Positions 24,776 to 40,984 of a DNA stretch of 64,000 bases are shown one piece after another. The translations under genes were made by a program, and so were the position numbers. Below the pieces are notes generated by a model. It did no database searches. It had not been told where the DNA came from and was given only the letters and a program-made list of their open reading frames with translations. The stretch's first letter is position 1, and every line of letters starts with the position of its first letter. Source of the DNA: an uncultured Candidatus Binatia bacterium (GTDB taxonomy: Bacteria > Desulfobacterota > Binatia > UBA9968 > JAJDTQ01); contig CBDCAF010000018.1 in assembly GCA_965213675.1 (NCBI GenBank), positions 19,905-83,904 of the forward strand, read 5' to 3'.

Positions 24776-24779
24776 TTCC

Positions 24780-24816
24780 TTATTATGTAGAAGAACATTA
24801 TGTTTGACAACATAAT
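24780..24816. promoter_or_regulatory. AT-rich inverted repeat in the divergent promoter region (candidate operator)
   Basis: ATTATGTT-N4-AACATAAT at 24797-24816 overlapping TTGACA (24804-24809); third ATTATGT half-site at 24782. Confidence 0.5.
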
Positions 24817-24827
24817 AATCGGCAAGT

Positions 24828-27800: not shown

Positions 27801-28169
27801 CAGGATATCGAAGACCTGCTGCCGCAACTCGAAGACCGCGCCGAGGGTGTGGCCCGGAGCGCTGGGGACAGGCTTCGCGCACGTGGCGAAAGGGAGGGAC
27901 AGCAGCTTCGGGAGACCCTGGAACGTCAGCGCCGGCGAGTGGAAACGGAACTCGGCAAGCACGAGGGCCGCGGAACCCAGCTCACGCTGGAGTTCAGTGA
28001 AGCCGAGAAGCGCCAGCTTCAGGCCGACATCGCGTCGTGGCGCGTGCGTCTGGACCGGTTCGACAAGGACCTTAAGACCGAACCGGCCCGGATCCGCGAG
28101 TTCTACGAAGTGCGGGCACAACGAGTCGAGCCCATCGGCTTGGTGTACCTGTGGCCGGACACCGGTTGA
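24828..28169 (+). CDS. drmD: DISARM SNF2-like helicase DrmD
   Basis: IADDTGLGKT, DEAHH, SATPHNG, EGLNFQ, QRNGRIDR; C-terminal EPIGLVYLWP; precedes an adenine MTase; start uncertain. Confidence 0.9.
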   Translation: MANSRNFSEYDKATTDLPAPLERTPLEDAARLLPERFPDVGELVEVRSRRWLVEAVESESGRVSLACADDDAQGQTLEVYWEFEIDRRILEVEAWNAIGAKGFDAPRHFSAFLHTLRWNCVTATDPNLFQSPFRAGIKIDAYQMEPLRKALRLPRVNLFIADDTGLGKTIEAGLIARELLLRKKVKTMVVAAPASVLEQWKAEMEERFGLLFVILDRAYLTQVRQERGFGVNPWRTHSRFLVSHNLLIDPTYADPMREWLGALLPGSLLILDEAHHAAPSSGGRYGIESKFTRAVRDVGGRFEHRLFLSATPHNGHSNSFSTLLELLDPYRFTRGVPVRGKKDLDEVMVRRIKEDIREVQGGFPRRHVEPVRIDGLPDDAPELVLSRLLDEYRGLREQRLAGARPRAQAMAGLLVVGLQQKLLSSIEAFAISLARHRRTIERLWAQDTEDGQNVPDTRVETVATEPFLKLFAKPPDADDERAEQTDEENAAEEEAQITAINETAELGTPTDEGAKAAWDKEQALLTRMHEVADGARGRPDAKTRRLIDWIYDNLCPDRPRWNERRVLIFTENVIGTKRYLREMLEQAIAGTDFAEERIETIDGQTAGARRKEIQRRFNADPAHDPLRILIATDAAREGLNFQAHCTDLFHFDLPWNPGRIEQRNGRIDRKLQPAPEVRCHYFVLPQRAEDRVLEVLVRKTATIRQQLGSLSKVIDDEVERRLREGIRHGDVERIARDIEAADLDRERRRVAAEELEAARERQDDLKGQIERCRGLLDQSRRWVQFEAQPFRNALSCSLEMLGAEPLKETRTDDGGVVWTLPPLAGKARADASWTATLDTLRAPRKTDQKLAEWRQQAPIRPVVFEDAGVLTDDTVHLHLEQRMAQRLLARFRSQGFVYHDLSRACLVQAADSVPRVILLGRLCLFGRHAERLHEELIPVAARWVEPSRRNGPLRAYAEEAEARTLERLETALQSARGPNETIHRRLRDIAAQDIEDLLPQLEDRAEGVARSAGDRLRARGEREGQQLRETLERQRRRVETELGKHEGRGTQLTLEFSEAEKRQLQADIASWRVRLDRFDKDLKTEPARIREFYEVRAQRVEPIGLVYLWPDTG

Positions 28170-28174
28170 GACCC

Positions 28175-31100
28175 ATGCCTGCGCCCGACCCACACACCCG
28201 CGCCCATCTCGAATGGCTCGGCTTCATCCAGCCGAACGGCCTCGTGGTCTCCGCTCCGGCCCTGGTCAAGGCTGGGGCCATCCTCAACCGGCACGATGTC
28301 GAAGGGCAGGAGTTGCTGGACGCTTGGTTGAACCAACGCGATGGATCGCCTGCGCGCCCTCGGGAACAGTGCCTCCAGGACTTCCGCGTATTCGCGAAGA
28401 CCATCCTCGGCTGGGGTTTCTCGCCCAAGGGATACGCGGGTACGGAGGAGACCCCTATCCCGGCGGCACTTAAGGTTCCTCTCCCCGACTACGGAGAGAC
28501 GCTGCGTCCGGACTTCGCGGTGTGCGAGCGCGACCCGCAGGCCGGGGAATTGCCGTGGCAGTTGCTCGTGCAGGTGCTGGAAGAGGGTGAAGGCTTCGAC
28601 AGGCCGACCGCCGGCGGACTGAAAACCTCTCCGCAGGATCGAATGGAGCGCCTCCTCCGCAGCACCGGAGTTCCTGCTGGTGTGCTCTTCAACGGCGCTG
28701 CGCTACGTCTCGTCTCGGCCCCGCGCGGCGAAAGCTCCGGCTGGATGGACTTTCGTTTGGCCGACATGGCCCAGACCGCGGGGCGGCCTCTGTGCGCGGC
28801 GTTGCGCCTTCTTTTGTGTGAGCAACGCCTGTTGACAGGGCCGAAGGAACATCGCCTGGCGGCGCTGCTCGCCGACAGCCGCCGGTATCAGAACGAGGTC
28901 AGCGAGCGGCTTTCCGAGCAGGTCATGCACGCACTCTATGACCTCCTTCGAGGGTTCCAGGCGGCCCAGGACGAATCCCGCGGAGAGCTGCTGCGGGAAC
29001 CGCTCTCCGCGGAAGGCGACCCCAACGACATCTATCGCGGCCTTCTCGCCGTCATCCTCCGCCTCGTCTTTCTGCTCTACGCCGAGGAGCGCCGCATGCT
29101 TCCGGGCGGCGAGACCTTCATCCAGCACTATTCGGTTGGCGGCCTCTACCAGCGCCTGCGCGAGGAGGCGGCCTTGCACCCGGATACCATGGATCAGCGC
29201 TACGGCGCGTGGGCGCAGCTTCTCGTGCTGTTCCGCCTTATTCACGACGGGGCGGGTGGGCACAAGACCGGAGGCAGCGTCAGCCTTCCGGAACGCCGCG
29301 GCGTTTTGTTCAACCCGGATCGGTATCCGTTCCTCGAGGGCCGTCACAGCGGCGGCGGCCGGCAGATCACCGAGCGGGTCCAGCCGCCGCTGGTCTCCGA
29401 CGGCGCCGTCTACCGGGTGCTGGAGAAGCTGGTAGTCCTCGACGGCGAGCGCATTTCCTACCGCACCCTGGACGTGGAACAGATCGGGTCCGTTTACGAG
29501 GTCATCATGGGCTTCCGTCTGGAGACCGCCACCGGCCGGTCCATGTCCGTCAAGTCCGCCAAGAAGCTTGGGGCGCCGAGCACCGTCGATCTCGACGAGT
29601 TGGCGAGACAGCCCGGCGAACGTCGTGGGAAATGGCTCCAGGACCGCGTGGACCGCACCCTCACCGACACCGTCAGGAAGGGACTGCGGGCAGCCGATAC
29701 GGTGGATGACCTTCACTTGGCGCTGGACCGGGTGCTGGACAAGGACGCCACGCCGGACCTCGTCACTCCCGGCTCCCTGGTGCTGCAACCCAGTGATGAG
29801 CGCCGCCGCTCGGGCTCCAACTACACGCCGCGGGAACTCACCGAACCGATTGTCCGCCACACTCTGGAGCCCCTGCTCAATCGGCTTCGCGGCGAGGATG
29901 GACAGGCACCGTCTCCCGCCCGGATTCTCGACCTCAAGATTTGCGATCCGGCCATGGGTTCCGGCGCCTTTCTGGTGGAAACCTGTCGCCAGCTCGCGGA
30001 TGCGCTCACCGAGGCATGGCACAAGCACGATGAGACGCCGGTAATCCCGCCTGACGAAGACGAGGGGATCCATGCCCGCCGTCTGGTCGCCCAGAAGTGC
30101 CTCTACGGCATCGACCGGAATCCCATGGCTGTGGACCTGGCCAAGACCTCGCTGTGGCTCAGCACGTTGGCGCGGGACCACCCGCTCACCTTCCTGGACC
30201 ACGCGTTCCGCCATGGCGACGCCCTCGTCGGATTGACCCGGAAACAGGCCGAGGCGTTCCACTGGATCCCGGATAGACCTCCTGAAGAGGGTTTCGAGAT
30301 CATGAGGGTGCGGGAACACATGACGGAGTTGGCCGCGCTGCGCCAGCGCATCAGGGACGCGGGCGAGGATGTCTCCGATCAAGAACTGCACGACATCTGG
30401 CAAGATGCGCGCGACGAGCTTGGCGCCGTCCGGCTCTACGGCGATCTGGCGCTGGCGGCGTTCTTCGCTGAAACCAAACGGGGGCCAAGGGAAGGGAAGA
30501 GGCGCGAATTCGCCGCAGCCGCCTGGGGTGGTCAGGCCGAGCGCTACCTGGGATGGATCGGGGACCAGCGCGGCAGCGACCCGCCGCTCGCTCCTTTCCA
30601 CTGGGAAATCGAGTTCCCCGAGGTGTTCGAGCGCGAGAATCCGGGGTTCGACGCGTTCGTCGGGAACCCGCCGTTCGCCGGGAAAAATAGCGTCGTCGCT
30701 GGTAACGTCGTGGGTTATCCCGACTGGCTCAAGACCGTCCACAGAGAGAGCCACGGCAACGCCGACCTTGTAGCGCACTTCTACCGGCGTGCGTTCAACC
30801 TCCTGCGTGAAGGGGGCGCGTTCGGTCTGATTGCCACCAACACCATCGCCCAAGGCGATACCCGTTCCACCGGACTGCGCTGGATTTGCGAGAACAACGG
30901 CTCGATCTTCCGCGCCACCAAACGGGTCAAGTGGCCCGGCGACGCGGCCGTGGTGGTCAGCGTGCTGCACGTCGCCAAGGGCGAATTTGCAGGAACCAAG
31001 GTGCTCGACGGCAGGGATGTGGAGAACATCACCGCGTTCCTCTTCCACAAGGGCGGCCACGCCGACCCGGCGCGCCTCGAAGCGAACGCCGGCAAGAGCT

Positions 31101-33325
31101 TCCAGGGAAGCATCGTCCTCGGAATGGGCTTCACCTTTGACGACACGGACAAGAAGGGCGTCGCCAACCCGCTGTCGGAGATGCAGCGGCTGATCGAAGC
31201 AGACCCGCGCAACGGCGAGCGCATCTTCCCGTACATCGGTGGCGAGGAGGTGAACACCAGCCCGACCCACGCCCATCACCGATACGTGATCAACTTTGAG
31301 GACTTTCCGTTGCGGAGGGAGGACCTGGGAAAGCAGTGGGCGGACGCGGGGGAAGACTTGCGCCGCACATGGCTGCGGCGCGGGGTGGTCCCGCTGGACT
31401 ATCCGGAGCCGGTGGCAGCGGATTGGCCGGATTTGCTGGCGATTGTGGATGAGCGAGTGAGGCCGGAGCGAAGCAAGCTCACGAAGAATCCCATCGGTCG
31501 AAAGCGAGCGGAGTTCTGGTGGCGTTACGGCTCGACGGCAAACGAACTCTACGCCGCCAGCGCCAGTCAGCCTCGAGTTTTGGTGATTTCGAGATACGGA
31601 CAAGTTGCTGCATTCACGTTCTTGCCCGCCGGCGCTGTCTATAGCGATTCATGCATCATATTCCCGGTCGACACCTATGCCGCCCTGTGCGTCCTCCAGT
31701 CCCGCCCCCACGAGATCTGGGTGCGCTTCTTTGGCTCGTCGATGAAGGACGACCTCCGCTACACGCCATCCGACTGCTTCGAGACTTTCGCTTTTCCTGA
31801 TGATTGGGCAACGGCCACGGCGCTGGAGGCCGCAGGCAAGGCGTATTTTGAGCACCGAGTGACGCTGATGCTCTGTAACGGTGAGGGTCTGACCAGAACC
31901 TTAAACCGCTTTCATGACCCCTACGATGGCAATCCGAATATCATCCGTCTCCGAGAACTCCACGCCGCCATGGACCGCGCCGTCCTCGACGCCTACGGCT
32001 GGACCGACATCCCCACCGACTGTGATTTCCTCCTCGACTACGAAATCGACGAGGCTACTTGGGGCGTGAAGAAAAAGCCGTACCGCTATCGCTGGCCCGA
32101 CAAAATTTGCGACGAAGTCCTTGCTCGCCTTCTCGCCCTCAATGTTGAGCGTTCCGAAGAGGAAGCCCGTGCACGGCTGGTGCAGAAGCCGGTCCGAAAG
32201 AAACGCCATCGCGTCCTGATGGTGGCAGAACAACCTCCTCTCTGGGATCGTCCAATGACTGACCAGACTCCACAGCGGTTCACGCCGTTGGTGAAGCGCT
32301 CTCGTCCCAAGCCTTCGACGATCTATCCGGTTCTCTGGAAATTTGCGTGTGAGCGCCAGCGGGTCTATCTACGGCGCGTCGCAGGCGACCCAAGCCCGTG
32401 GACTACGGACACTGTGCTGTCAGAATACAAGTTCACGAATGCCTTCAGAGCCGCTGACAGGGTGAGTCAGTACCTGATTCAGTTGATCTATTCTGATGCT
32501 AAGGCCAGCGGCGCCAACGTGTTTCTGAGAGCCCTTTTATTCAAGGTCTTCAACAAGATCGAGACGTGGGACAGGGTCGTTAACGGACTCGGCATGCCTG
32601 TCGCTCACGAGTTCGACTACGCGGCGTGCGACGATTTGCTTGTCAATCTTCGTCGGCAGGGGGCGCCGATTTACTCCGCCGCTTACATCATGCCATCGGG
32701 AGGACGAGTCGGGATGCCGAAGCACCGGATGCATCTCGAACTGATTCGCAGAATGCTTGATGAACGCCTTCCGGAGAAGCTGCAGGAGTCGAAGTCGCTG
32801 GCTGAAGCCTACGAGATGGTTCTTTTGTATCCCACGTTGGGACCCTTTCTCGCTTTCCAGTACGTTATCGACCTAAATTATTCGACCCTGATGAACCACT
32901 CGGAACAGAGATTCGTGGTTGCCGGCCCCGGCGCCTTGGATGGACTGTCCAAGTGCTTCGAGTCGCTTGGGGAGTATGATCCGGCCGACGCCATCCTATG
33001 GTTGTCCGACATCCAAGCGGACGAGTTCGCGCGGTATGGACTCGAATTCGGGGGTCTATGGGGACGCCCGCTTCAGCCGATCGATGTCCAGAATCTGTTC
33101 TGTGAGGTCTCGAAGTACACTCGGGTGACACATCCAGAGATAAGAGGCCTGACCAAGCGTAAACGCATCAAGCAAAGATTTGCGATGACAGGGCCGCTCG
33201 CCAAGCCCTTCTTCCCGCCCAAATGGGGCTTGAATCAACGAATTGACGAGTGGCTCCCGCGCCGAACGGGTGCAACTCTCGAACAACGCGAGCTTTTCTT
33301 CCCAACCCCAGCCAGGCCTACGTGA
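28175..33325 (+). CDS. drmMI: DISARM N6-adenine DNA methyltransferase DrmMI, fused in frame to a C-terminal aGPT-Pplase1-like domain (from 32255)
   Basis: DPAMGSGAF (motif I), FHWEIEFPEVF, GNPPF (motif IV), LRYTPSDCFETF; no stop before the second domain. Confidence 0.88.
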   Translation: MPAPDPHTRAHLEWLGFIQPNGLVVSAPALVKAGAILNRHDVEGQELLDAWLNQRDGSPARPREQCLQDFRVFAKTILGWGFSPKGYAGTEETPIPAALKVPLPDYGETLRPDFAVCERDPQAGELPWQLLVQVLEEGEGFDRPTAGGLKTSPQDRMERLLRSTGVPAGVLFNGAALRLVSAPRGESSGWMDFRLADMAQTAGRPLCAALRLLLCEQRLLTGPKEHRLAALLADSRRYQNEVSERLSEQVMHALYDLLRGFQAAQDESRGELLREPLSAEGDPNDIYRGLLAVILRLVFLLYAEERRMLPGGETFIQHYSVGGLYQRLREEAALHPDTMDQRYGAWAQLLVLFRLIHDGAGGHKTGGSVSLPERRGVLFNPDRYPFLEGRHSGGGRQITERVQPPLVSDGAVYRVLEKLVVLDGERISYRTLDVEQIGSVYEVIMGFRLETATGRSMSVKSAKKLGAPSTVDLDELARQPGERRGKWLQDRVDRTLTDTVRKGLRAADTVDDLHLALDRVLDKDATPDLVTPGSLVLQPSDERRRSGSNYTPRELTEPIVRHTLEPLLNRLRGEDGQAPSPARILDLKICDPAMGSGAFLVETCRQLADALTEAWHKHDETPVIPPDEDEGIHARRLVAQKCLYGIDRNPMAVDLAKTSLWLSTLARDHPLTFLDHAFRHGDALVGLTRKQAEAFHWIPDRPPEEGFEIMRVREHMTELAALRQRIRDAGEDVSDQELHDIWQDARDELGAVRLYGDLALAAFFAETKRGPREGKRREFAAAAWGGQAERYLGWIGDQRGSDPPLAPFHWEIEFPEVFERENPGFDAFVGNPPFAGKNSVVAGNVVGYPDWLKTVHRESHGNADLVAHFYRRAFNLLREGGAFGLIATNTIAQGDTRSTGLRWICENNGSIFRATKRVKWPGDAAVVVSVLHVAKGEFAGTKVLDGRDVENITAFLFHKGGHADPARLEANAGKSFQGSIVLGMGFTFDDTDKKGVANPLSEMQRLIEADPRNGERIFPYIGGEEVNTSPTHAHHRYVINFEDFPLRREDLGKQWADAGEDLRRTWLRRGVVPLDYPEPVAADWPDLLAIVDERVRPERSKLTKNPIGRKRAEFWWRYGSTANELYAASASQPRVLVISRYGQVAAFTFLPAGAVYSDSCIIFPVDTYAALCVLQSRPHEIWVRFFGSSMKDDLRYTPSDCFETFAFPDDWATATALEAAGKAYFEHRVTLMLCNGEGLTRTLNRFHDPYDGNPNIIRLRELHAAMDRAVLDAYGWTDIPTDCDFLLDYEIDEATWGVKKKPYRYRWPDKICDEVLARLLALNVERSEEEARARLVQKPVRKKRHRVLMVAEQPPLWDRPMTDQTPQRFTPLVKRSRPKPSTIYPVLWKFACERQRVYLRRVAGDPSPWTTDTVLSEYKFTNAFRAADRVSQYLIQLIYSDAKASGANVFLRALLFKVFNKIETWDRVVNGLGMPVAHEFDYAACDDLLVNLRRQGAPIYSAAYIMPSGGRVGMPKHRMHLELIRRMLDERLPEKLQESKSLAEAYEMVLLYPTLGPFLAFQYVIDLNYSTLMNHSEQRFVVAGPGALDGLSKCFESLGEYDPADAILWLSDIQADEFARYGLEFGGLWGRPLQPIDVQNLFCEVSKYTRVTHPEIRGLTKRKRIKQRFAMTGPLAKPFFPPKWGLNQRIDEWLPRRTGATLEQRELFFPTPARPT
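32255..33325 (+). CDS. aGPT-Pplase1 / 5-hmdU DNA kinase-associated helical domain (fused domain or internally initiated gene)
   Basis: ERQRVY..R..G...PWT.D.VL..YKFTN..RA.DRVSQY, GPFLAFQY.IDLNYS, GPGA..GL, DVQNLFCEVSKY; in-frame ATG at 32255. Confidence 0.8.
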   Translation: MTDQTPQRFTPLVKRSRPKPSTIYPVLWKFACERQRVYLRRVAGDPSPWTTDTVLSEYKFTNAFRAADRVSQYLIQLIYSDAKASGANVFLRALLFKVFNKIETWDRVVNGLGMPVAHEFDYAACDDLLVNLRRQGAPIYSAAYIMPSGGRVGMPKHRMHLELIRRMLDERLPEKLQESKSLAEAYEMVLLYPTLGPFLAFQYVIDLNYSTLMNHSEQRFVVAGPGALDGLSKCFESLGEYDPADAILWLSDIQADEFARYGLEFGGLWGRPLQPIDVQNLFCEVSKYTRVTHPEIRGLTKRKRIKQRFAMTGPLAKPFFPPKWGLNQRIDEWLPRRTGATLEQRELFFPTPARPT

Positions 33326-34397
33326 TTTCGCGGTAAAGAAGTTGCCGTTGATTCATGTCGAGCGTTACGTGTCCTCCCTCGTGTTCCCGGAGAGACCTGA
33401 ACACGCGATATCCTTTGAGAATGGCGGTTTCCCACCGCCATAGGGGAAGTTTGGCGACCTCGAAGCCTTGTATGAACTCCTTTACGGCCTTGAGCAGGTC
33501 ATAGTCGACCTGGTCGATATTGTCGTAGTAGTTCATTTTCTTTGCCCGGCTGAATACAATGGCGGATACGGCCTCTTCGATAATTCTCGCCCGCGCACCG
33601 TCCTCGTTCTCGTCCACCAGTGGATCGCTCTTCCGCTTGCACTTCAGTAGGTGTCTTATGACAGGTGACCATCCGAGGTACACGGCGTAAGCGAAATGGA
33701 AAACATCGTGAAACCGGTAGAAGTCAGGCTGTCCGATATTGTCCGTCAGGCGATCCCCGAAGTTCAGTCCGTTACACCGGAGTATGGCCGTCACCTTGCT
33801 GTCCCGCTGGACTTGGCGAAAGTCGATATCGAGTTTACGTGGGAGCTGTTCCTCTTCCGGGAAGCCCTCATCGAAGAAAGGTGGGACGACATACCTCTCG
33901 GGCCATCGGCTCTGCGTCTTTTCCTGGTTCGTTCGCGCGGCCTCGTAGAGGTCGACGCCGGCGCCTTCCGCAACGTGAAATAGGGCGTCCCAGGTTGGCC
34001 CAAGCCTTCCGGAATCCATTCGGTCACGGTTTTGCACTGCACTGAGTAATTCGCCCGCCGCAACCCCGAGGGCCACTCCATCCCCCAAGGGTCCTGGGCT
34101 TCGCCCCGATAGGGCCTGCGCTCGCTTGTTCGCACGGTTCAGTGCCGACGGATCAAGAATGGCGGAGAGGCGCGCCAAGTACCAAAGACAATCTCCGATT
34201 TCTTCGACGAGCCGCTTACGGTATGCGGGATAGGCGTCGGTTTCACGTTGTTCCTTTTTCAATTCGGCGAGAACACTCCCCGCTTCACCGAAAAGACCTG
34301 CCGCAAGGATGAGGGCGTGGTTCGGTTTGTCGACGAGTTGATCCGTTCGCTTTGCAGACTTGGCGTATTCAATGAGCCAAGACATCGGCTTTCTCAT
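33318..34397 (-). CDS. MazG-like NTP pyrophosphohydrolase with MazG_C domain
   Basis: GLFGEAG...KK...EEIGDCLWY, degenerate second MazG repeat, C-terminal DFYRFHDVFH (DxYRxHDxxH) and EDGARA..IEE. Confidence 0.88.
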   Translation of the reverse strand: MRKPMSWLIEYAKSAKRTDQLVDKPNHALILAAGLFGEAGSVLAELKKEQRETDAYPAYRKRLVEEIGDCLWYLARLSAILDPSALNRANKRAQALSGRSPGPLGDGVALGVAAGELLSAVQNRDRMDSGRLGPTWDALFHVAEGAGVDLYEAARTNQEKTQSRWPERYVVPPFFDEGFPEEEQLPRKLDIDFRQVQRDSKVTAILRCNGLNFGDRLTDNIGQPDFYRFHDVFHFAYAVYLGWSPVIRHLLKCKRKSDPLVDENEDGARARIIEEAVSAIVFSRAKKMNYYDNIDQVDYDLLKAVKEFIQGFEVAKLPLWRWETAILKGYRVFRSLREHEGGHVTLDMNQRQLLYREIT

Positions 34398-35163
34398 GTG
34401 CTTCCTTCAAGGAACGGAGATCGTCGAGCAGTTTCTGTAGCCGTCTTTCCGACCCCTCAAGGGTGGCATAAGACGAGTGGACCACCAGGGTGCCCATGTC
34501 CTGCCCGGTCTCTTTGGCGACACAATCCTGGAGGCGGGCCAAACCAAGCAGGTTGCCTGGTACCTTGTATCGGTAGTCATGGCTCCGGTAGAATGCTGTC
34601 AGGTGGACCGCACCAACGAAGAGCTTGAACGAAAGGTGGGAGAGACAAGGATCGCCCCGTCGGCGTTTACCGTCTTTCACCGTGTTGTAGAGGGGCATGT
34701 CGTATTCCCCTTCGGCGACATTAATGTCGTAACGGGATTTCATGGTTCCCTTGGTCGAAAGCTCCTTCTTCATATTGTCTATCATCTCCTTCAAGGGGTT
34801 CATGTCCGTGCCATCGGCTGTCTTTCGTCGAACCAGCCGATAGGCGTAGGTGTCCCAAAGGATCTTTGGATGCCGCTTGATCGCCGGAAAGGTCTTATCG
34901 GGGTAGTCGTCGTAGACGCCCTTCAGTCCCCGCCTGCGATATTCTGACAAGGGAAAGATCGTTTCGGCCACCGAGTGAATCGGTAGTTGGTTTTCGCCCA
35001 TAAAGAAGTCATCGAGTTTTTGCTCTGCGGCCTTGGGATAGCCCCTCTTTCCCGGTTCTCCGATCTCCAGCACAAGGTTCAGCATGGGACCGTTGGACAA
35101 CAGGAACTCGGCGGCGTCAACCCAGGCATCCATCCAGGCAGCGGTCTGGATCAATTTTGCCAT
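34369..35163 (-). CDS. thymidylate synthase-superfamily protein (possible dUMP hydroxymethylase)
   Basis: PCLSHL catalytic Cys, AFYRSHD, GNLLGL (Asn at the dUMP-specificity position), VVHSSYA; TGATG coupling to the upstream gene. Confidence 0.8.
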   Translation of the reverse strand: MAKLIQTAAWMDAWVDAAEFLLSNGPMLNLVLEIGEPGKRGYPKAAEQKLDDFFMGENQLPIHSVAETIFPLSEYRRRGLKGVYDDYPDKTFPAIKRHPKILWDTYAYRLVRRKTADGTDMNPLKEMIDNMKKELSTKGTMKSRYDINVAEGEYDMPLYNTVKDGKRRRGDPCLSHLSFKLFVGAVHLTAFYRSHDYRYKVPGNLLGLARLQDCVAKETGQDMGTLVVHSSYATLEGSERRLQKLLDDLRSLKEAHEKADVLAH

Positions 35164-35792
35164 CACGTCACCTCCTCCGTGAGGGCCAGTAGGTCGCGTA
35201 GATGACGGGCGAGGAAGGCGTCGTCGAGCCATGCATGGCCGTTGTCACCCCATTCGGCACCCCAGCTATTCCTGACCAGGAAGCACCGCGATGTATCGGC
35301 GGTCCCCAAACCGACCGCTACGACTGCGTGAAGACCTCGGATCGGGCCGTCGTGCGAGATTAACCAAAGAGGTGTAGGCGACAAAAAGTCGTCTGGTATG
35401 GAAATGCCGAGAACAGGCGTTTGCCCAGCGTTTAGCAGGGTTTCGACCTCATCTGCGGTAGCATCCTTCTGAACGCTCTTGCGTGGGTACAGTCGCACGC
35501 CTGCCGGTGGCATCCAGCCGAGAGGCAAACCGTCGGGATAGTAGGGGCAGTCTGCTTCCGCGGGCTGCCCAGGGTCTTGCAGGGCACGAGATGTCTCCAG
35601 GAATGCTGCGCCATCCGTCGGATTGTGGACCGACGCAAAGTAGTGGAGATACTCCGGCGAGAGCGCCATCTTGGAGCCGCGCACGCGTTCGTGTGCGCTC
35701 GTGCAGGCAAATGATAGACATGTGGGCCGGGCGCCCTGGTCCCGAATCGGGCCGAGGCTTTGCCGGTGGTCGACGAGAACGGTGATGTTCAT
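35163..35792 (-). CDS. papain-like C1 family cysteine peptidase, no signal or pro-peptide
   Basis: RDQGARPTCLSFA (Gln/Cys), LHAVVAVG (His), VRNSWGAEWGDNG (Asn); ATGA coupling. Confidence 0.9.
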   Translation of the reverse strand: MNITVLVDHRQSLGPIRDQGARPTCLSFACTSAHERVRGSKMALSPEYLHYFASVHNPTDGAAFLETSRALQDPGQPAEADCPYYPDGLPLGWMPPAGVRLYPRKSVQKDATADEVETLLNAGQTPVLGISIPDDFLSPTPLWLISHDGPIRGLHAVVAVGLGTADTSRCFLVRNSWGAEWGDNGHAWLDDAFLARHLRDLLALTEEVT

Positions 35793-36772
35793 GCTGCATT
35801 TGCCAGTGCGTCGAGTTTGGCTTTTCTCGGGAAGCCGCCGGATTCCTTTCCATGAGCATCGATTTTGATCGCGATATGGTCGAGTGTCGCGCCGCTCCAT
35901 GGGCGGGCGTGTTCAAAGGCGAGTCGATGTGTGCCAGGAGTATTGAAACGGACATACACGACACGGGCTGAAGGCCGTCCATAGACTCTGTCCGAGTCTG
36001 CTGTGTGCTCTGCGATGACCTCGGAGCTGGCTCCGGTGTCGATGAGCCTCCAGATGTAGCCGGCGGAAACGTTGTCCTCCAGATGGACTGCGAAGAGATC
36101 GTCGGGTCCGGCTTCGAGAAACGTGTCGGTGTCACCACAGGTCAAAGCCCAGACGTCGGCCCAGGAGTTCGTGATCAGTTCTGCGGGTGCCAACGCCCGC
36201 TTCAGTTCCTTGACCGGCGTCGCTTCGAGTTGTTTGGCTTCCGCGCGCGTAAGGACCTTGGACGTTACCAAACCCCAGCATGCGGCTTGGTAGCTGATGC
36301 CCAAGCGAAGGGAAAGTTGGTAGATGTTGCGCGGTTGATGCAGCTCTTGCCTTTTCCAGCCATGGCGTGTGGCGGATTCTACCATGAGCTGTTTTGATGC
36401 CAGCAGCTCCGAGGCAAAGGTGTCAGCGGCCACCTCCTCAATCGCACGTGACCCTGAAGCGTGACGTCCCGCGAACCCAACGGTTTTATCCAGGCTTGAC
36501 TCATGCCCCAGCACCCAGTGTCCGAGCTCGTGGGCCAGTGTAAACCGCTGAACGGCCAGTCCCATGCGACTCGTAACGATGATGCCTCGGGCACCCTTGC
36601 CAGCGGGAACAACGGCGCCCCAAAGATGATCCAGCGGCCGAAAGACGAGGGGGATGTCCCGCGTGGTGATCGCGCTGACAATGTCGAAACTGGTGCGGTC
36701 ACTCTTGGCAGTTGAGGCGAGAATCTTGGCTGCTTCTCTGACGGCTCGCAAAGTCTCGTTACGTCTGTTCAT
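35789..36772 (-). CDS. ImmA/IrrE metallopeptidase with C-terminal chagasin (I42 inhibitor)-like domain
   Basis: RFTLAHELGH, EVAADTFASELL, HTH-like segment; C-terminal LEDNVSAGYIW ... PGTHRLAFEHARPW. Confidence 0.85.
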   Translation of the reverse strand: MNRRNETLRAVREAAKILASTAKSDRTSFDIVSAITTRDIPLVFRPLDHLWGAVVPAGKGARGIIVTSRMGLAVQRFTLAHELGHWVLGHESSLDKTVGFAGRHASGSRAIEEVAADTFASELLASKQLMVESATRHGWKRQELHQPRNIYQLSLRLGISYQAACWGLVTSKVLTRAEAKQLEATPVKELKRALAPAELITNSWADVWALTCGDTDTFLEAGPDDLFAVHLEDNVSAGYIWRLIDTGASSEVIAEHTADSDRVYGRPSARVVYVRFNTPGTHRLAFEHARPWSGATLDHIAIKIDAHGKESGGFPRKAKLDALANAA

Positions 36773-37121
36773 CCGGTTTCCTCGACCGCAGGAATTGGGC
36801 GAAACGAAGAACCTCCTCCCGGTCGGTCACCGACAGTTCAGCGGTCGCCCGTGCTACCAGTCGTACCGACTCCGGCTCCGGGCTCTCCAGATCGGGTCCG
36901 GTGAGGCTCTCCATGTTGGTCTGATAGAGCGTGGCAAGGCGCTGAAGTTCCAATGCATCGACACGTCGCGCCCGATTCTCCATGAGTGAAATGGCGGATC
37001 TGGGAAGGCCGAGATGTGCGGCAACCTCTTCCTGGGTGAACCCGCAGTATTCCCGCGCCTCCTTTAGCCGCGTGCTCAGGGTGCCACGCTTGGCTGGCTG
37101 GCCGTGATTATCGTCGTTCAT
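36759..37121 (-). CDS. XRE-family HTH transcriptional regulator
   Basis: RLKEARE..G.TQEEVA..LG..RSAIS..E...R; GGAGG RBS. Confidence 0.92.
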   Translation of the reverse strand: MNDDNHGQPAKRGTLSTRLKEAREYCGFTQEEVAAHLGLPRSAISLMENRARRVDALELQRLATLYQTNMESLTGPDLESPEPESVRLVARATAELSVTDREEVLRFAQFLRSRKPDEQT

Positions 37122-37155
37122 TTACCACCTCCAATCGGATGGGTTGGCGTCAAGC

Positions 37156-37551
37156 TCAGGAGATCTTTCTCATCATTTCGGGTACAAGATGATCGATCAT
37201 GTCGTCGATGCTCTGGTAACCTCCAGGACGAATCAGCCGAACGTCAATGGGGCGACCTAGGTATCGCTGAAAAATCGGAGAGCTGCGGGCCACAGCCTTT
37301 GAGTCCAACTCAGGCATGGAATCCCACAGGTCGGAGTTGCTCCTGTCACTGACCATTCCGTTACGACTCGCTTCCACTTGTAAATCCCAGTCTCCCATCT
37401 CCTGACTCGCCCATTCCCTGAGTTCTTTTCTCAAGAGGGCCTCCTTGTTCGGCCCACGGCCCCTCACGGTCCTCAGCGTGGAGGTATCCCAGAACGAAAG
37501 GGGAATCTGGGATGAAGATTTAGGGGCTTGGGTAGGGATTTTGTGTTCCAT
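37156..37551 (-). CDS. divergent acyl-carrier-protein-like protein
   Basis: ELDS(84)KAV...IFQRYLGRPID..LIRPGGYQSIDDMIDHL follows the ACP helix II-IV spacing; adjacent to a PPTase. Confidence 0.6.
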   Translation of the reverse strand: MEHKIPTQAPKSSSQIPLSFWDTSTLRTVRGRGPNKEALLRKELREWASQEMGDWDLQVEASRNGMVSDRSNSDLWDSMPELDSKAVARSSPIFQRYLGRPIDVRLIRPGGYQSIDDMIDHLVPEMMRKIS

Positions 37552-37585
37552 AACGGAACAAGATTAGCACCGTAATGTTCGAAAG

Positions 37586-38257
37586 TCAAACATTGCGTTG
37601 GGGCAATTCCGGCTGTTGTGACAACAAGGCAACTGAGCCCACCCAGGGACGGACGGCGGTGGTGCAGCAAACCTCTACAGCGATTCGGTCGAAATGAGCA
37701 ACGCCGTTCATCATCCCTTGTGGCGCAACTTCCTTCCACGAGAGTCGTACGTTGTCGTAGCCGAATCGGACACCAAGAACAGGGTTCAAAGCCTTGAAAA
37801 CGGCTTCCTTCACCGACAGTAGGATCACCGAGCCTGCAACACCCCAGTCCAGAGGCAACTCGTCGGACGCGATCAGTCCTTTGATTGACAGGAGTTCCCG
37901 ACCGCGGTCCAGAGTCTCGATGTCGATGCCGACGGACCTCACGTGACTGATCCGAGATAGCCCAGCCACAACTTTGGTGCCTTTATGGCTCACGCTCCCC
38001 GTGTAACCCGGTGGCCAGTCTCGGGCGCCGGAGGCGAGGTGCCCTGGCTCATTGGCAGACAGCCCAGCACTCTCCAGCAGATTGGTCAGACAGGTCGCCG
38101 TGGCCTTCCGTCTCGCGCGTTCCACGACGGGGACACGTTCAGCGGACAGGACGTCCTGAGGGCCTGGTAGCCAATGCGCAAAAGAACCGCCCCTGATGCT
38201 CACTTCAGGTGCCAAGCGTTTGAGTTCGTCAACGAGGGGGTCACGTTGCAGATACAT
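37586..38257 (-). CDS. 4'-phosphopantetheinyl transferase (EntD/Sfp-like)
   Basis: WPPGYTGSVSH, VGIDIE, SVKEAVFKAL motifs. Confidence 0.85.
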   Translation of the reverse strand: MYLQRDPLVDELKRLAPEVSIRGGSFAHWLPGPQDVLSAERVPVVERARRKATATCLTNLLESAGLSANEPGHLASGARDWPPGYTGSVSHKGTKVVAGLSRISHVRSVGIDIETLDRGRELLSIKGLIASDELPLDWGVAGSVILLSVKEAVFKALNPVLGVRFGYDNVRLSWKEVAPQGMMNGVAHFDRIAVEVCCTTAVRPWVGSVALLSQQPELPQRNV

Positions 38258-38439
38258 GGTTTGATTTTTGCCGTTTACGGGTCTGCGTGGGGTCGATATC
38301 GGTTGGGTGCCGTGACGACGGCTGGCTTCTCGTTGTCTCCCGTGCCCCAGTTCTTCCGCTTGGGGCATATCGTCTCATCGGGTAACCTATTCTATAGGCC
38401 GCCGGTTCCGTGGGCGAGCCCCCATTGGACGCGATCCTG

Positions 38440-38838
38440 ATGGAAGCCAAACTCAAGCACCTTGAATTTATCCAGGGCGTAGTGAATCGCCTAGCGTCTG
38501 ACTCCTTCCGAATGAAGGGCTGGGCGGTGGCCTTGGTTGCTGCGTTCTTTGTCCTGTTGGCAAGGGAAGGACGGATCGAATTTGCCCCGATAGCCGTGGT
38601 TCCCGTGCTTGTCTTCTGGGGACTCGACGGCTACTTCCTGTGGCAGGAACGTCTCTTCCGTGCCCTGTACGATCACGTTCGGCGTGTGAGTGAAGTCGAC
38701 ATTGACTTCTCCATGGATGTCGGCCCGTTTCGAATGGGCTGGCGACGAACTTGGTTGGGCGCAACATTCTCGAAAACGCTGATCTTCTTCTACGGCGCGT
38801 TGACCATCGCTGTCGGCTTGGTGACGTGCATCTACTGA
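38440..38838 (+). CDS. small membrane protein (about 3 TM), candidate TIR-system effector
   Basis: KLKHLEFIQGVVNRLASDSF.MKGW, FWGLDGYFLWQERLFRALY; three hydrophobic stretches; 19 bp upstream of the TIR gene. Confidence 0.8.
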   Translation: MEAKLKHLEFIQGVVNRLASDSFRMKGWAVALVAAFFVLLAREGRIEFAPIAVVPVLVFWGLDGYFLWQERLFRALYDHVRRVSEVDIDFSMDVGPFRMGWRRTWLGATFSKTLIFFYGALTIAVGLVTCIY

Positions 38839-38857
38839 CCGCGAGGAGACACATCCA

Positions 38858-39355
38858 ATGACACGCAGGGTGTTCTACAGCTTTCACTACAACGCCGACA
38901 ACTGGCGAGCTGCCATGGTGCGCAATATCGGCAGTATCGAAGGGAGCAGCCCCGCATCGGACAACGACTGGGAGGCCGTGAAGAGGGGCGGGGAAGCAGC
39001 GATCAGGAAATGGATCGCCAACCAAATGCAATACCGCTCCTGTACAGTCGTACTGGTCGGGTCGAATACTGCGAACCGCAAGTGGATCAACCACGAAATC
39101 GTCAAGTCGTGGGATGACGGTATGGGTGTGATAGGGATCCACATTCACGGGCTGAAGGATGCCGACGGCAATACGTCAGCCCGAGGAGCCAATCCGTTTG
39201 ACTTCATCACGCTTGGAGATTCTGCGAAGCGGCTATCATCCATAGTGAGGTGTTGTGTTCCCGGCGGCAGCAATAGTCAGGAGAAATATGCCTGGATCTC
39301 GAAGCACCTCGCGAATGCAGTAGAAGAAGCCATAAAAATACGAAACAATAATTGA
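38858..39355 (+). CDS. Thoeris ThsB-like TIR domain protein (MTH538/DUF1863)
   Basis: RRVFYSFHY..D.WR...VRN, WI..QM...SCTVVLVG..TANRKWINHEI (catalytic Glu), G.NPF. Confidence 0.9.
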   Translation: MTRRVFYSFHYNADNWRAAMVRNIGSIEGSSPASDNDWEAVKRGGEAAIRKWIANQMQYRSCTVVLVGSNTANRKWINHEIVKSWDDGMGVIGIHIHGLKDADGNTSARGANPFDFITLGDSAKRLSSIVRCCVPGGSNSQEKYAWISKHLANAVEEAIKIRNNN

Positions 39356-40608
39356 AGACCGCTATCGTCTGTATGAAAGCATCCATCGAGCAACCCAACC
39401 CTGGAGCCGATCCCGGAACGATCACGCGCGTAGCCCTGCGTAACTACAAAAGCATTGCCGCCTGCGATGTCGAGTTGACGCCGCTCACTGTCCTCGTGGG
39501 TCCCAACGGTTCCGGCAAGAGTAATTTCCTTGACGCCCTGTGCTTTGCGGCGCAGGCATTGCGTTTTTCTCTGCACCATGCTGTACACGAGCGCGGTGGG
39601 ATCAACGAGGTGCGCCGGCTTTCCCACGGCCATCCCAACCGCTTTGGCATCCGTCTGGATTTCCGTTTGTCCGACGCAACAGGGTGGTACGCGTTCAAGA
39701 TCGGAGTGCGACGGAACGGCGGCTGTGTCGTACACCGCGAGGAATGTGCTATCCAACACGCCGACCCTGGAGAAAGGCAGTATTTCCGAATAGGCGACGG
39801 TCGTCTACTGTCTACCTCCATCCCACACCCGCCGCCGACAGGTGGAAGTGACCGACTTTACCTACAGTCGGCCTCAGGATTTCGAGCGTTCCGGCCGATT
39901 TACGATATGTTGGCGGGAATGGGGTTCTACAATCTCAAGCCGGACCGGATTCGAGACTTCCAGTCGCCGGACCGCGGGGATCTCCTCAAACGGAATGGAA
40001 GCAACATCGCCAGCGTTCTCGCCAACCTTGAGTCACGTTCCCCAGAGGTTGCAACACGGGTCGGCCAATACCTGTCCAAGGTCGTCCCGGGAACGGTCGG
40101 CGTGGCGTCGAAGACGGTCGGACCCAAGCTGACCCTGGAGTTTTGTCAGCAGGTGCGTGGCGATCCGCACCCTCGGCGGTTTCTTGCCAACAACGCTTCA
40201 GAAGGGACGTTGCGGGTCGTCGGGGTACTCGTAGCGCTTTGTCAGAGTATCGGAGTGGAATCGGGGAACGTGAAACTGGTCGGCATCGAAGAACCGGAAG
40301 GCACCCTTCACCCTGCGGCTGCCGGAGTGCTGTCCGACATACTGCGCGAGGCGAGCGAGCGTGTGCAGGTTGTCGTCACCAGCCAGAGTGCGGACTTGTT
40401 GGATCGGAAAACGATTCCATTGGAATCCATCCTGGCGGTCGTCTCCGAGGACAATGAGACGAAAATTGCCCGGCTTGATGCGGCAGGCCACACGGCACTC
40501 CGGGAAGATATGTTCACGGCGGGGGAGATGCTTCGGATGAATCAGCTTACGCCGAATCCAAAGCAGGTGGCGCCCGTTCACCTGGACCTCTTCCGTAAGG
40601 AGGAGTAG
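39352..40608 (+). CDS. AAA_21/ABC-type ATPase
   Basis: NYKSI, GPNGSGKSN, SEGTLR, IEEPEGTLHP, VVTSQS; start may be 39373. Confidence 0.88.
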   Translation: MKTAIVCMKASIEQPNPGADPGTITRVALRNYKSIAACDVELTPLTVLVGPNGSGKSNFLDALCFAAQALRFSLHHAVHERGGINEVRRLSHGHPNRFGIRLDFRLSDATGWYAFKIGVRRNGGCVVHREECAIQHADPGERQYFRIGDGRLLSTSIPHPPPTGGSDRLYLQSASGFRAFRPIYDMLAGMGFYNLKPDRIRDFQSPDRGDLLKRNGSNIASVLANLESRSPEVATRVGQYLSKVVPGTVGVASKTVGPKLTLEFCQQVRGDPHPRRFLANNASEGTLRVVGVLVALCQSIGVESGNVKLVGIEEPEGTLHPAAAGVLSDILREASERVQVVVTSQSADLLDRKTIPLESILAVVSEDNETKIARLDAAGHTALREDMFTAGEMLRMNQLTPNPKQVAPVHLDLFRKEE

Positions 40609-40633
40609 GGGAAGGTGTCAAGGAGGCGTGTTC

Positions 40634-40984
40634 ATGCCGCGCAACACATCGGTTTCTCTCGGGTATCACTTCATCGGTTTCATCGACGAGCGTGTGCAGT
40701 CCGGTCGTTACAACTCGGCAAGCGATGTGGTGCGCGCCGGGCTGCGGCTGTTGGAAGAGCACGAAGCCAAGGTTGAGGCTCTGAGGGAAGCCCTCATCGA
40801 AGGCGAGCAATCCGGTCCGGCGACACCGTTTGACTTCGACGCGTTCATTACCCGCAAGAAGACTACTCAGGACGGTCAAGAGGGCCGTCCTGAGACCCAG
40901 TCCGAGTTTGCCAGCCAAGACCGCTACCCGGCCGGCCATGAAACGGGACGCCTGAACCGAGACGACATTGACGAAGGCGGTTAG
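40634..40984 (+). CDS. parD: ParD-family (CC2985-like) antitoxin, orphan, C-terminally extended
   Basis: RNTSVSLG.HF..FI...V.SGRY.SAS.V.RAGLRLLE...LR.ALIEGE.SG. Confidence 0.85.
   Translation: MPRNTSVSLGYHFIGFIDERVQSGRYNSASDVVRAGLRLLEEHEAKVEALREALIEGEQSGPATPFDFDAFITRKKTTQDGQEGRPETQSEFASQDRYPAGHETGRLNRDDIDEGG

Follow-up and report, generated by a model that had tools for sequence, protein, structure and literature searches.

A widespread, mobile operon of carrier-like, thymidylate synthase-like and protease/inhibitor genes inside a DISARM locus: a candidate anti-phage nucleotide-modification system

Several described systems share parts with the operon analysed here. In phages, thymidine hypermodification runs, as laid out in the available text of PMC8989533 and PMC5889632, from a deoxyuridine monophosphate (dUMP) hydroxymethylase via 5-hydroxymethyldeoxyuridine (5-hmdU) in DNA and a P-loop kinase (5-HMUDK) to a transferase of aGPT-Pplase clade 2. 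In the same text of PMC8989533, Lee et al. ascribe a DNA-glycosylase-like fold to aGPT-Pplases and report that the exocyclic C5 methylene intermediate of the clade-2 enzyme was trapped as a β-mercaptoethanol adduct. The main text of the DefensePredictor study (PMC13092281) predicts aGPT-Pplase, MazG, MazG-C, dUTPase, NMAD and uracil-DNA glycosylase (UDG) domains as defensive, calls MazG_C a predicted nucleotide kinase, and describes a validated Escherichia coli system of a thymidylate synthase (TS), a deoxynucleoside monophosphate kinase, a 5-hmdU kinase and an NMAD protein. Genes embedded in DISARM loci are often defensive according to the text of Payne et al. 2024 (10.1101/2024.01.29.577857), and in the repressor-cleaving peptidases CapP and IrrE, single-stranded DNA (ssDNA) is described as bound in a groove between the GAF and peptidase domains (10.1101/2022.04.27.489752; 10.64898/2026.05.16.725639, in the text available). 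Here, we analysed a 64,000-nucleotide stretch of contig CBDCAF010000018.1 from an uncultured Candidatus Binatia bacterium (hereafter, the window), in which a DISARM locus holds a seven-gene operon that draws on several of these families and adds to them a carrier-like protein, a dedicated phosphopantetheinyl transferase (PPTase) and a papain-type protease with a candidate inhibitor.

The seven genes lie co-oriented and mostly overlapping on the minus strand (33318-38368) and converge on an HMUDK_hel (PF18723) domain. In the direction of transcription, they encode a PPTase-like protein of the Sfp/EntD type (37586 to 38257 or 38368, start uncertain), an acyl carrier protein (ACP)-like protein with Ser84 and a GGY motif (37156-37551), an XRE-family helix-turn-helix (HTH) repressor that is CapH-like (36759-37121; HTH_31, 1.7e-10), an IrrE/ImmA-type M78 metallopeptidase with a C-terminal I42 chagasin domain (35789-36772; Peptidase_M78, 1e-9; Inhibitor_I42, 3.1e-10), a C1 (papain-family) peptidase (35163-35792; Peptidase_C1, 5.5e-10), a TS-like protein of 264 residues (34369-35163), whose start we placed at M24 of a 287-residue open reading frame (ORF), where the homologues begin, and, as the last gene, MazG fused to MazG_C (33318-34397; MazG_C, 1.8e-78; MazG, 5e-5). 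A candidate palindromic operator of 17 nt (37576-37592) lies in the intergenic region between the PPTase-like gene, which is upstream of it, and the ACP-like gene, with which the regulated operon begins. In minus-strand orientation, the C1 and TS-like genes meet at TGATG (35165-35161) with GGAGGAGG upstream, and the IrrE and C1 genes meet at ATGA (35792-35789); GGAGGTGG precedes the ATG of the XRE gene. The XRE and IrrE genes overlap by 14 nt and the TS-like and MazG genes by 29 nt, and the MazG stop codon overlaps tail-to-tail by 8 bp (33318-33325) with the end of a plus-strand ORF. An earlier note on this DNA, made from the letters and ORF translations alone, had described the seven co-oriented genes, the coupled ATGA and TGATG junctions and the 8-bp tail overlap, and all of these are present in the ORF coordinates. 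Its domain assignments also hold in Pfam, the translations and the alignments, including DxYRxHDxxH of MazG_C, HExxH of IrrE, the papain cysteine and Ser84 of the ACP-like protein. MazG_C scores 262.9 bits against a cut-off of 29.7 (PF18722) and MazG 23.9 against 22 (PF03819), and the translation contains the motifs EEIGDCLWYL and DFYRFHDVFH. A scan of 33000-38600 for promoters and terminators was at the level of chance, with one promoter-like match (1.8 expected) and five terminator-like matches (5.6 expected).

A set of 185,579 species, each represented by one genome, was scanned with an alignment of the TS-like family. This gave at least 106 relatives, of which the best 80 were kept, and together with the window, they form the 81 loci to which the counts below refer; the counts apply only to loci that have the TS-like gene. 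Hidden Markov models (HMMs) were built from ORF clusters of the same 81 loci and used in a six-frame search with a longest-ORF heuristic, and co-occurrence was defined as location within 8 kb of the TS-like gene. The ACP-like and C1 genes were each found in 74 loci, the IrrE-I42 gene in 72 and the XRE gene in 71. A five-gene core in the fixed order ACP-like, XRE, IrrE-I42, C1, TS-like was present in 69/81 loci, and all eight genes of the window type, i.e., including HMUDK_hel, in 24/81. The recurrence of the same order in dozens of distant genomes argues that the arrangement is not due to chance, and the conserved neighbourhood that the earlier note had asked for is therefore there. Judged by record titles, the carriers belong to the Acidobacteriota, Myxococcota, Planctomycetota, Verrucomicrobiota, Spirochaetota, Chloroflexota, Actinomycetota and Nitrospinia as well as to the Alpha-, Beta- and Gammaproteobacteria, including Pseudomonas, Burkholderia, Cupriavidus and Sphingomonas.

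The system was also found on 22 plasmid records, one of them archaeal. The order on this Haloarcula plasmid is tmk, a "nucleotide kinase domain" protein, PPTase, hypothetical protein, HTH protein, ImmA/IrrE, C1 peptidase and hypothetical protein, with a restriction endonuclease adjoining. On a conjugative plasmid of Bradyrhizobium, the order is Shedu, acpS, hypothetical protein, HTH protein, I42-family protein, C1 peptidase and hypothetical protein, followed by genes for uracil-DNA glycosylase, nucleoside triphosphate pyrophosphohydrolase and deoxycytidine triphosphate (dCTP) deaminase. Among plasmid-encoded C1 peptidases, all 16 matches of at least 34% identity were in records that hold the TS-like gene, and more distant ones (Bacillus, Clostridium) were in unrelated contexts; the XRE/IrrE-I42/C1 trio, thus, appears to be specific to the system. 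A phage origin was considered and rejected: a phage collection gave only weak partial matches to true TS, and 2.9 million viral contigs of IMG/VR contained two relatives, both with the core. The run in the window is, in our reading, a single copy of an operon that is widespread and moves horizontally.

The operon resembles the phage hypermodification pathway in having a TS-fold enzyme with a catalytic Cys and a uracil-type Asn, a domain of the aGPT-Pplase family (PF18723) together with enzymes of the deoxynucleotide pool, and, in our proposal, chemistry at the exocyclic C5 methylene. It differs from that pathway in being cellular or plasmid-borne and nearly absent from phages, in lacking, based on Pfam, a P-loop 5-HMUDK, a clade-2 transferase and tailoring enzymes of the pyridoxal phosphate or radical S-adenosylmethionine type, and in adding a carrier, a PPTase, a C1 peptidase with an I42 inhibitor domain and a repressor/protease switch.

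The TS-like protein was modelled with AlphaFold2 from 26 homologues (pLDDT [predicted local distance difference test] 75, predicted template modelling score 0.80). Among the matches listed by Foldseek for this model against the PDB, the top ones were all thymidylate synthases (best match, E 2.9e-10, probability 1.00, template modelling score ~0.52), and the top viral structural match was the T4-type gp42 deoxycytidine monophosphate (dCMP) hydroxymethylase (E 5.5e-10). The motifs GPCLSHLSFK and YRSHDY..KVPGN are invariant or at least 90% conserved across the family, and P172-C173 and R193-S194-H-D196...N204 are the conserved positions within them. The resulting P-C and R-S-x-D-x7-N patterns presumably match the spacing in ThyA. 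The base-selecting position is Asn, not Asp; according to PDB entry titles, Asn229 of Lactobacillus casei TS governs the choice between dUMP and dCMP. Asn and the motif spacing suggest that the substrate is probably of the uracil type (dUMP). Based on the model, we place the TS-like protein in a divergent branch of the TS/dCMP hydroxymethylase superfamily and do not claim it as a thymidylate synthase proper.

The ACP-like family, for which a word-indexed search gave 23 proteins, has the pattern P..(L/I)DSK.V ... LG..L ... IR.GGY, with Ser84 and Gly111 invariant in 72 sequences. The window protein has no match in Pfam, NCBIfam or PADLOC; across the family, PP-binding (PF00550) is the Pfam family with the most matches, yet only for 5/72 sequences and with a best E of 0.0055. 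In a profile search of the PDB, carrier proteins (acyl, D-alanyl and aminoacyl) gave the best matches, though with marginal E values (0.02-1); by manual count, they made up ~20 of 33 rows, and Ser84 aligned on the serine of the DS motif of PDB carrier proteins, including ACP 9l1v. VIA-align ranked ACPs among the top rows at Z 5.7-4.5, tied with unrelated helical proteins, Foldseek with a model of the protein gave no PDB match at E ≤ 0.001, and in the ESM Atlas a neighbour cluster with PP-binding on 18% of its members ranked sixth. The PPTase-like protein scores below the Pfam cut-offs (ACPS, 4.3e-4; 4PPT_N, 7e-4; 20.7 bits for the PPTase against 25), but in a phmmer search of the PDB, 11 of 12 matches were PPTases (EntD, 6.4e-7), and the G.D.E and KEA..K motifs are conserved in its family. 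PPTases of two non-orthologous types are present in 41/81 loci (Sfp type in 29, AcpS type in 12), and acpS adjoins the ACP-like gene on the Bradyrhizobium plasmid. Because Ser84 is invariant, ACPs are the best matches and two types of PPTase have been recruited, the ACP-like protein is likely a carrier protein, predicted to be phosphopantetheinylated. Like type II acyl or peptidyl carriers served by Sfp- or AcpS-type PPTases, it has a DS serine, a predicted helical bundle and a partner PPTase, but there is no synthase or loading partner in the operon, and its predicted partner is a TS-fold enzyme.

This partnership came from a complex prediction with the TS-like protein and residues 35-131 of the ACP-like protein, which scored 0.67 (runs, 0.67, 0.43 and 0.73), while the best of three control pairs scored 0.02. 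Of 80 solved complexes, 58 came up to this mark, as did 2 of 110 mismatched pairs; with our own alignments as input, these counts are only rough. The runs share at least 47% of contacts, and the partner pLDDT is at least 69. On the ACP-like side, the predicted interface consists of invariant residues (73-80, 83-86 and 109-111, including D83-S84-K85) and, on the TS-like side, of residues 60-79 around the invariant E67. The modelling supports binding between the two proteins; to our knowledge, there is no precedent for a TS-fold partner of a carrier protein, and no solved TS-carrier complex is known to us. In five loci without XRE, IrrE and C1 genes (L040, L044, L054, L058 and L061), the ACP-like and TS-like genes are directly adjacent. 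Judged by gene content, these two genes are the invariant pair of the system, and their products are predicted to function jointly.

Directly upstream of the ACP-like gene, the candidate operator (37576-37592) matches the consensus TGTTYGA-N3-TCRAACA with 0 mismatches and overlaps a -35-like hexamer, TTGACT. It is the only match in the window, which is weak on its own (chance mean, 0.47; at least one match in 40 of 100 shuffles). Across the 81 loci, there were 73 matches in 1,453,824 bp, and 65 of these were in the 320-nt zones upstream of ACP-like genes, which total 23,680 bp. The operator was found in 54 of the 74 loci with an ACP-like gene, often as two copies ~30 nt apart, and upstream of this gene on the Bradyrhizobium plasmid; it was absent from all five loci without an XRE gene. 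Given this position, the ACP-like gene is the first of the regulated unit, and the XRE protein is likely a repressor that acts on the predicted operator. PADLOC capH matches the XRE protein over residues 7-100 of 103 (1.1e-11), and capP matches the IrrE protein in the peptidase part only (7.1e-16; model positions 8-146 of 242). In the IrrE protein, M78 spans residues 61-165 and Inhibitor_I42 residues 224-302 (40.6 bits against a cut-off of 27.2); AHExGH and the tryptophans of G..W and RPW are conserved in 72 sequences, and homologues are named in RefSeq either "protease inhibitor I42 family protein" or "ImmA/IrrE family metallo-endopeptidase." As in the CapH/CapP, IrrE/DdrO and ImmR/ImmA switches, the operon combines a repressor of the HTH type with a zinc peptidase of family M78 and has a candidate palindromic operator at the promoter, and, as described for CapH/CapP in the available text of 10.1101/2022.04.27.489752 and 10.64898/2026.05.16.725639, the pair is linked to defence loci, including DISARM. 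With the capH and capP matches and the conserved operator, the proteolytic switch proposed in the earlier note is plausible, but a sensor of the CapP type is not part of it: the C-terminal domain is of the I42 chagasin type and not GAF as in CapP. A further difference from CapH/CapP is that a second protease, the C1 peptidase, is attached.

The C1 peptidase scores 40.1 bits against a cut-off of 20.7, and Q19, C25, H155, N175 and W177 are invariant in 27 sequences. The protein is cytoplasmic, having neither a signal peptide nor a prodomain, and begins at the N-terminus of mature papain. As the prodomain is missing, the tethered chagasin domain of the neighbouring IrrE protein suggests itself as the natural restraint of the peptidase. 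The two resemble known pairs of chagasin and papain-family proteases in that I42 is above the Pfam cut-off with its tryptophans kept, the catalytic set of C1 is complete and the genes are adjacent; unlike in those pairs, the inhibitor is fused to a metallopeptidase and the protease is cytoplasmic without a prodomain.

Beside the core are genes predicted to act on nucleotides or DNA. At least one such accessory gene (MazG_C, HMUDK_hel, UDG-like, dCTP-deaminase-like or a second TS) is present in 78/81 loci: MazG_C in 60, HMUDK_hel in 48 and the UDG-like gene in 26, the latter two never together (0/81). The UDG-like label is the RefSeq product name of a clear family member on the Bradyrhizobium plasmid (8.5e-89). 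Mutual exclusivity and the glycosylase-like fold of aGPT-Pplases suggest that HMUDK_hel and the UDG-like protein are alternative DNA-level enzymes for the same modified base. In L036, HMUDK_hel, MazG and MazG_C are encoded in a single ORF of 742 residues on the minus strand downstream of the TS-like gene, and this fusion is Rosetta-stone evidence that the three cooperate. In the Beta- and Gammaproteobacterial (type II) loci, the convergent arm consists of UDG-like, MazG-MazG_C and DUF4031 (6e-27) genes and is followed by a divergent second HTH gene (e.g., L080, 12720-13426); the presence of DUF4031 in 20/81 loci ties it to the nucleotide module. In eight loci, the system is adjoined by a gene for a ~430-470-residue protein without Pfam or NCBIfam match (L043, 11421-12704; also L015, L030, L036, L051, L053, L055 and L057). 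A D...E.K pattern, read by eye, resembles PD-(D/E)xK nucleases, and the protein may be an extra effector.

In the window, the HMUDK_hel domain is part of a single plus-strand ORF of 1,724 residues (28151-33325), in which DrmMI (residues 15-1354; PADLOC E 0; 28151 to ~32250) is followed by HMUDK_hel (residues 1391-1665; ~32321-33145). The PF18723 match is near full length (315.9 bits; model positions 3-280 of 281), with E values of 8.2e-93 on the full ORF and 3.1e-94 on its last 356 residues. Pfam names this family HMUDK_hel, and we take it to be the former aGPT-Pplase1. The earlier note had placed a separate aGPT-Pplase1-like gene here; the domain is confirmed by the PF18723 match, but the separate gene is not, as there is no stop codon between DrmMI and HMUDK_hel and the proposed start is an internal ATG (32255). 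An assembly artefact at the junction was rejected because independent contigs of sequencing runs X1 and X2, both of the same study and perhaps including the source sample, span it without indels. The same in-frame arrangement is present only in L008 and L012, with separate frames in L011 and L016; since the in-frame form is common only to these close relatives, the fusion is recent and lineage-specific.

Starting from the observed gene content and order, the catalytic residues kept in the TS-like, C1, M78 and PPTase families, the operator and the TS fold, and with model support for ACP-TS binding, we infer biochemical steps, a trigger and a role in defence as the best explanation of the operon. 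In the ground state, the XRE repressor would occupy the palindromic operator upstream of the ACP-like gene. Upon a trigger, the IrrE-type metallopeptidase would cut XRE and the operon would be expressed. The I42 domain tethered to the IrrE protein would curb the C1 peptidase and could, in this way, provide a second, post-translational gate. The TS-like enzyme, with the holo-carrier beside its active site, would convert dUMP to a form modified at C5, with a hydroxymethyl or related group. dUMP could be supplied by a dCTP-deaminase-like enzyme that converts dCTP to deoxyuridine triphosphate (dUTP), and by MazG or a dUTPase-like enzyme that converts dUTP to dUMP. The C5-modified dUMP would then be raised to the triphosphate by MazG_C (Tmk in Haloarcula), and the product would enter replicating DNA. 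In other loci, dCTP-deaminase-like, Tmk or second-TS genes may serve this same role in dUMP supply and phosphorylation. Finally, a glycosylase-fold enzyme, HMUDK_hel fused to DrmMI here and the UDG-like protein elsewhere, would act on the modified base in DNA, with a block of phage replication as the net outcome. Consistent with a role in defence, DISARM genes are located within 10 kb in 12/81 loci, and Shedu, a restriction endonuclease and a type I restriction endonuclease are among the neighbours of other copies. We tentatively favour such a switch-controlled pathway to a C5-modified deoxyuridine nucleotide that enters DNA and is processed there, and hence a candidate anti-phage system, at slightly less than an even chance.

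A more specific and rather doubtful idea is that the phosphopantetheine thiol of the carrier acts in the active site of the TS-like enzyme, where it would either capture the exocyclic C5 methylene, giving a protein-tethered 5-(S-pantetheinyl-methyl)-dUMP, or donate one carbon as a folate-independent (hemithioacetal) donor. If a tethered nucleotide or the thiol reached DNA via an enzyme of the aGPT-Pplase type, DNA-protein adducts would be possible. If the thiol chemistry held, an immune system would be using carrier chemistry to modify nucleotides or DNA, with a protease restrained by an inhibitor on the sensor peptidase as the gate, and this would represent a new biochemical logic.

Several observations weigh against the proposed defence pathway. 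The TS-like protein is below the Pfam cut-off (23.0 bits against a gathering score of 24.3 for PF00303) and has no sequence match to solved structures, its family profile giving none among PDB sequences at E ≤ 0.01. Among the eight genes, Pfam finds no P-loop 5-HMUDK and no clade-2 aGPT-Pplase, and the UDG-like representative has no match in Pfam, NCBIfam or PDB sequences, so that its label is a RefSeq name only. No carrier-loading enzyme, whether adenylating or acyl-loading, is among the conserved neighbours of the 81 loci, which leaves the acyl or aminoacyl group that the earlier note had the carrier possibly deliver without support. The IrrE protein lacks GAF, the domain by which CapP senses ssDNA, and the XRE and IrrE genes are co-oriented as genes 2 and 3 inside the operon, whereas CapH/CapP are reported as upstream and divergent in the text available of 10.1101/2022.04.27.489752. 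With I42 in place of GAF and the pair inside the operon, the ssDNA trigger is not simply transferable. Only 2 of 10 sampled large flanking proteins match PADLOC. The counts presuppose the TS-like gene, and the HMMs derive from the same loci. Lastly, minimal loci with ACP-like, TS-like and HMUDK_hel genes (L054, L058 and L061) have no regulator and lie among housekeeping-looking ORFs; this suggests that the chemistry need not be toxic and would fit a constitutive DNA mark.

Such a mark is the core of the first alternative, in which the product is not a poison but a thymidine-type hypermodification on the DNA of the cell or element itself that protects it from nucleases, such as those of competitors or of adjoining defence systems, constitutive in the minimal loci and inducible here, with the carrier supplying the group attached by the aGPT-Pplase-type enzyme. 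Beyond the minimal loci, which also lack obvious defence neighbours, this alternative would fit the window, L008 and L012, where HMUDK_hel is fused in frame to DrmMI, a methyltransferase that is itself self-marking, and clade-2 aGPT-Pplases are described in the available text of PMC8989533 as amino-acid:DNA transferases in phages, where the marks protect DNA. However, an inducible repressor/protease switch would be odd for a self-mark that has to be complete beforehand, the UDG-like protein that replaces HMUDK_hel in 26 loci has a name that implies removal of a base rather than its decoration, no partner nuclease is conserved, and the missing P-loop 5-HMUDK and clade-2 transferase count against marking as well. 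We consider a self-mark unlikely, though worth keeping in mind.

The second alternative is that the island is a mosaic of separable systems, with MazG-MazG_C and HMUDK_hel as a nucleotide system of their own and the ACP-like/TS-like pair plus the trio as a producer of a signalling nucleotide or a protease-based toxin/antitoxin. Here, a second operon is relevant, which consists of genes for a transmembrane protein, a TIR protein, Nmad2 (PF18753, 1.5e-68) and MazG-MazG_C and converges on HMUDK_hel (L008, 9269-12049; L012, 9687-12407; L011, 9035-12286; L013, 9217-12887). It is present instead of the core in these four loci of the same genus, in three of them at the same DISARM position, and represents another candidate system built around this MazG/HMUDK_hel pair. 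MazG-MazG_C plus HMUDK_hel is, therefore, a separable module. MazG_C is missing in 21/81 loci and HMUDK_hel in 33/81, and the C1/I42 pairing resembles toxin-antitoxin logic. On the other hand, the MazG and TS-like genes overlap by 29 nt in the window, and MazG directly follows the TS-like gene in the same orientation in most loci of the window type; the accessory genes stand beside the core in 78/81 loci; and all 16 close plasmid matches of the papain-like protein are in records that hold the TS-like gene. We judge a mosaic of independent systems improbable. The gene set that the earlier note had presented as one system, thus, survives as a conserved core but not as an indivisible unit, since the MazG/HMUDK_hel module is separable and the UDG-like gene replaces HMUDK_hel in 26 loci.

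A small, non-immune biosynthetic cluster for a nucleoside-type specialized metabolite would explain a carrier protein with a dedicated PPTase, generally a hallmark of natural products, and TS-fold enzymes occur in pathways to nucleoside antibiotics; but with no synthase, condensation, adenylation or export gene among the conserved neighbours, with DNA-acting accessory genes (UDG-like, HMUDK_hel), with copies in DISARM and beside restriction-modification or Shedu genes, and with control by an XRE/IrrE pair, we give it very little credence. The assignment of the peptidase to the ImmA/IrrE family in RefSeq, integrase-like ORFs in eight loci (cluster c12, labelled by eye from the sequence) and copies on 22 plasmid records and two viral contigs would also fit a mobile element that controls lysogeny or excision by a switch of the ImmR/ImmA type and carries the nucleotide genes as cargo to modify its own DNA, but this is highly improbable given that the flanks vary by locus while the operon is constant, that the conserved neighbours include neither phage structural nor conjugation genes and that the operator precedes the ACP-like gene and not an excision or lytic module.

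We compared the operon to catalogued defence systems. None of the TS-like, C1, ACP-like, MazG and PPTase proteins is covered by a model in PADLOC-DB v2.0.0 or NCBIfam 20.0, and the accessory UDG-like, dCTP-deaminase-like, second-TS, Nmad2 and DUF4031 genes have none in PADLOC or NCBIfam. We found no description of the ACP/TS/C1/I42 combination in the literature searched; supplements and older family papers may bear on priority. The MazG_C, aGPT-Pplase and Nmad families likely go back to work by Iyer et al. in 2013 and Burroughs et al. in 2015 (Nucleic Acids Research), in which parts of the neighbourhood may be described. In agreement with the suggestion in the earlier note, no named system matches in the two databases or the literature searched. 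The operon shares with the DefensePredictor systems, as given in the main text of PMC13092281, MazG, MazG_C, aGPT-Pplase-type, UDG-like, dCTP-deaminase/dUTPase-like and TS-fold proteins in a defence setting, with Nmad2 in relatives; the validated TS system was compared by description. In that main text, "papain" does not occur and the sole "peptidase" is M15, and the supplementary tables may list the operon. Like the embedded genes of Payne et al., the window copy is located between DrmMI and DrmA beside PDC-M50A/B and HEC-01A. The text of Payne et al. (10.1101/2024.01.29.577857), as far as available, has no mention of MazG, thymidylate or peptidase, and unlike their embedded candidates, the TS-like, C1, ACP-like, MazG and PPTase proteins match no PADLOC-DB v2.0.0 model, PDC candidates included. 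Parts of the operon (the MazG_C, aGPT-Pplase and Nmad families) are, thus, known from predictions, and inducible nucleotide-modifying defence operons are a known kind, to which the operon adds new parts.

If the operon is defensive, it would add to the known repertoire a broadly distributed immune system, with at least 106 relatives in the scan of 185,579 species, many phyla and an archaeal plasmid. It would contain parts that are not known to occur in immunity, i.e., an ACP-type protein with its own PPTase bound to a TS-fold enzyme and, likewise new, a papain-type protease restrained by a chagasin domain, and it would link the phage chemistry of thymidine hypermodification to host-side use of the same enzyme families. 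The operon also represents a testable case of re-purposing of a TS-fold enzyme. The operator, Ser84, TS Cys173 and C1 Cys25 provide genetic handles, and cultured, harmless carriers exist (e.g., Pseudomonas, Sphingomonas and Sorangium records among L029, L053, L074 and L083).

The placement inside DISARM that the earlier note had reported is borne out by PADLOC matches to DrmD (24828-28169; 2.8e-303), DrmMI, DrmA (41756-45556; 2.6e-277) and DrmB (45466-47382; 2.7e-80), which flank the run and belong to the DISARM class 1 set of DrmD, DrmMI, DrmA, DrmB and DrmC; DrmC was not found among the four downstream ORFs tested. The seven-gene run and the HMUDK_hel domain sit between DrmMI and DrmA in an island of low G+C content (56-60% at 32-42 kb, compared to 62-69% elsewhere in the window), which also contains genes for PDC-M50A, PDC-M50B (a ThsB-type TIR protein), a HEC-01A-type ATPase and ParD. 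The first three form a plus-strand group at 38410-40608, divergent from the PPTase-like gene, with adjacent or overlapping genes for a PDC-M50A membrane protein (1.7e-45), a PDC-M50B/ThsB-type TIR protein (3.2e-67) and a HEC-01A-type ABC ATPase (7.2e-150). No TOPRIM partner (HEC-01B) was seen beside them, and the trio may combine two PADLOC candidates in a variant of three genes. The ParD antitoxin gene (40628-40984, plus strand; 3.6e-35) is matched by its relatives over the first 80 residues only. In L008 (8151-8691) and L012 (12890-13428), an ORF of 96 residues beside ParD reads by eye as ParE-like; none was seen among window ORFs of at least 100 residues, no search having been aimed at ParE, and the pair may be degraded in the window.

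An ORF of 126 residues (41397-41777, plus strand) without a family match overlaps the start of DrmA. It has 86-90% identity to ORFs upstream of DrmA in L008 and L012, with fragments in L009, and may be an unrecognized small DISARM-associated gene. Just upstream of DrmD, an ORF of 484 residues (23390-24844, minus strand) matches the PADLOC candidate PDC-S27 (9.7e-28) and is, by this match, a further defence candidate of the island. Finally, the summed contig depth in runs X1-X4 was ~100-160 over 31800-32023 versus 4-24 beyond, with values of 4-7 for the minus-strand genes from ~33.4 kb onwards. Breaks between contigs occur at ~31950-32020, and a higher-depth variant contig of X3 and X4 with nine substitutions spans 32000-33075 only. 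This pattern suggests co-existing strains in which the end of DrmMI and HMUDK_hel are common and the cargo differs.

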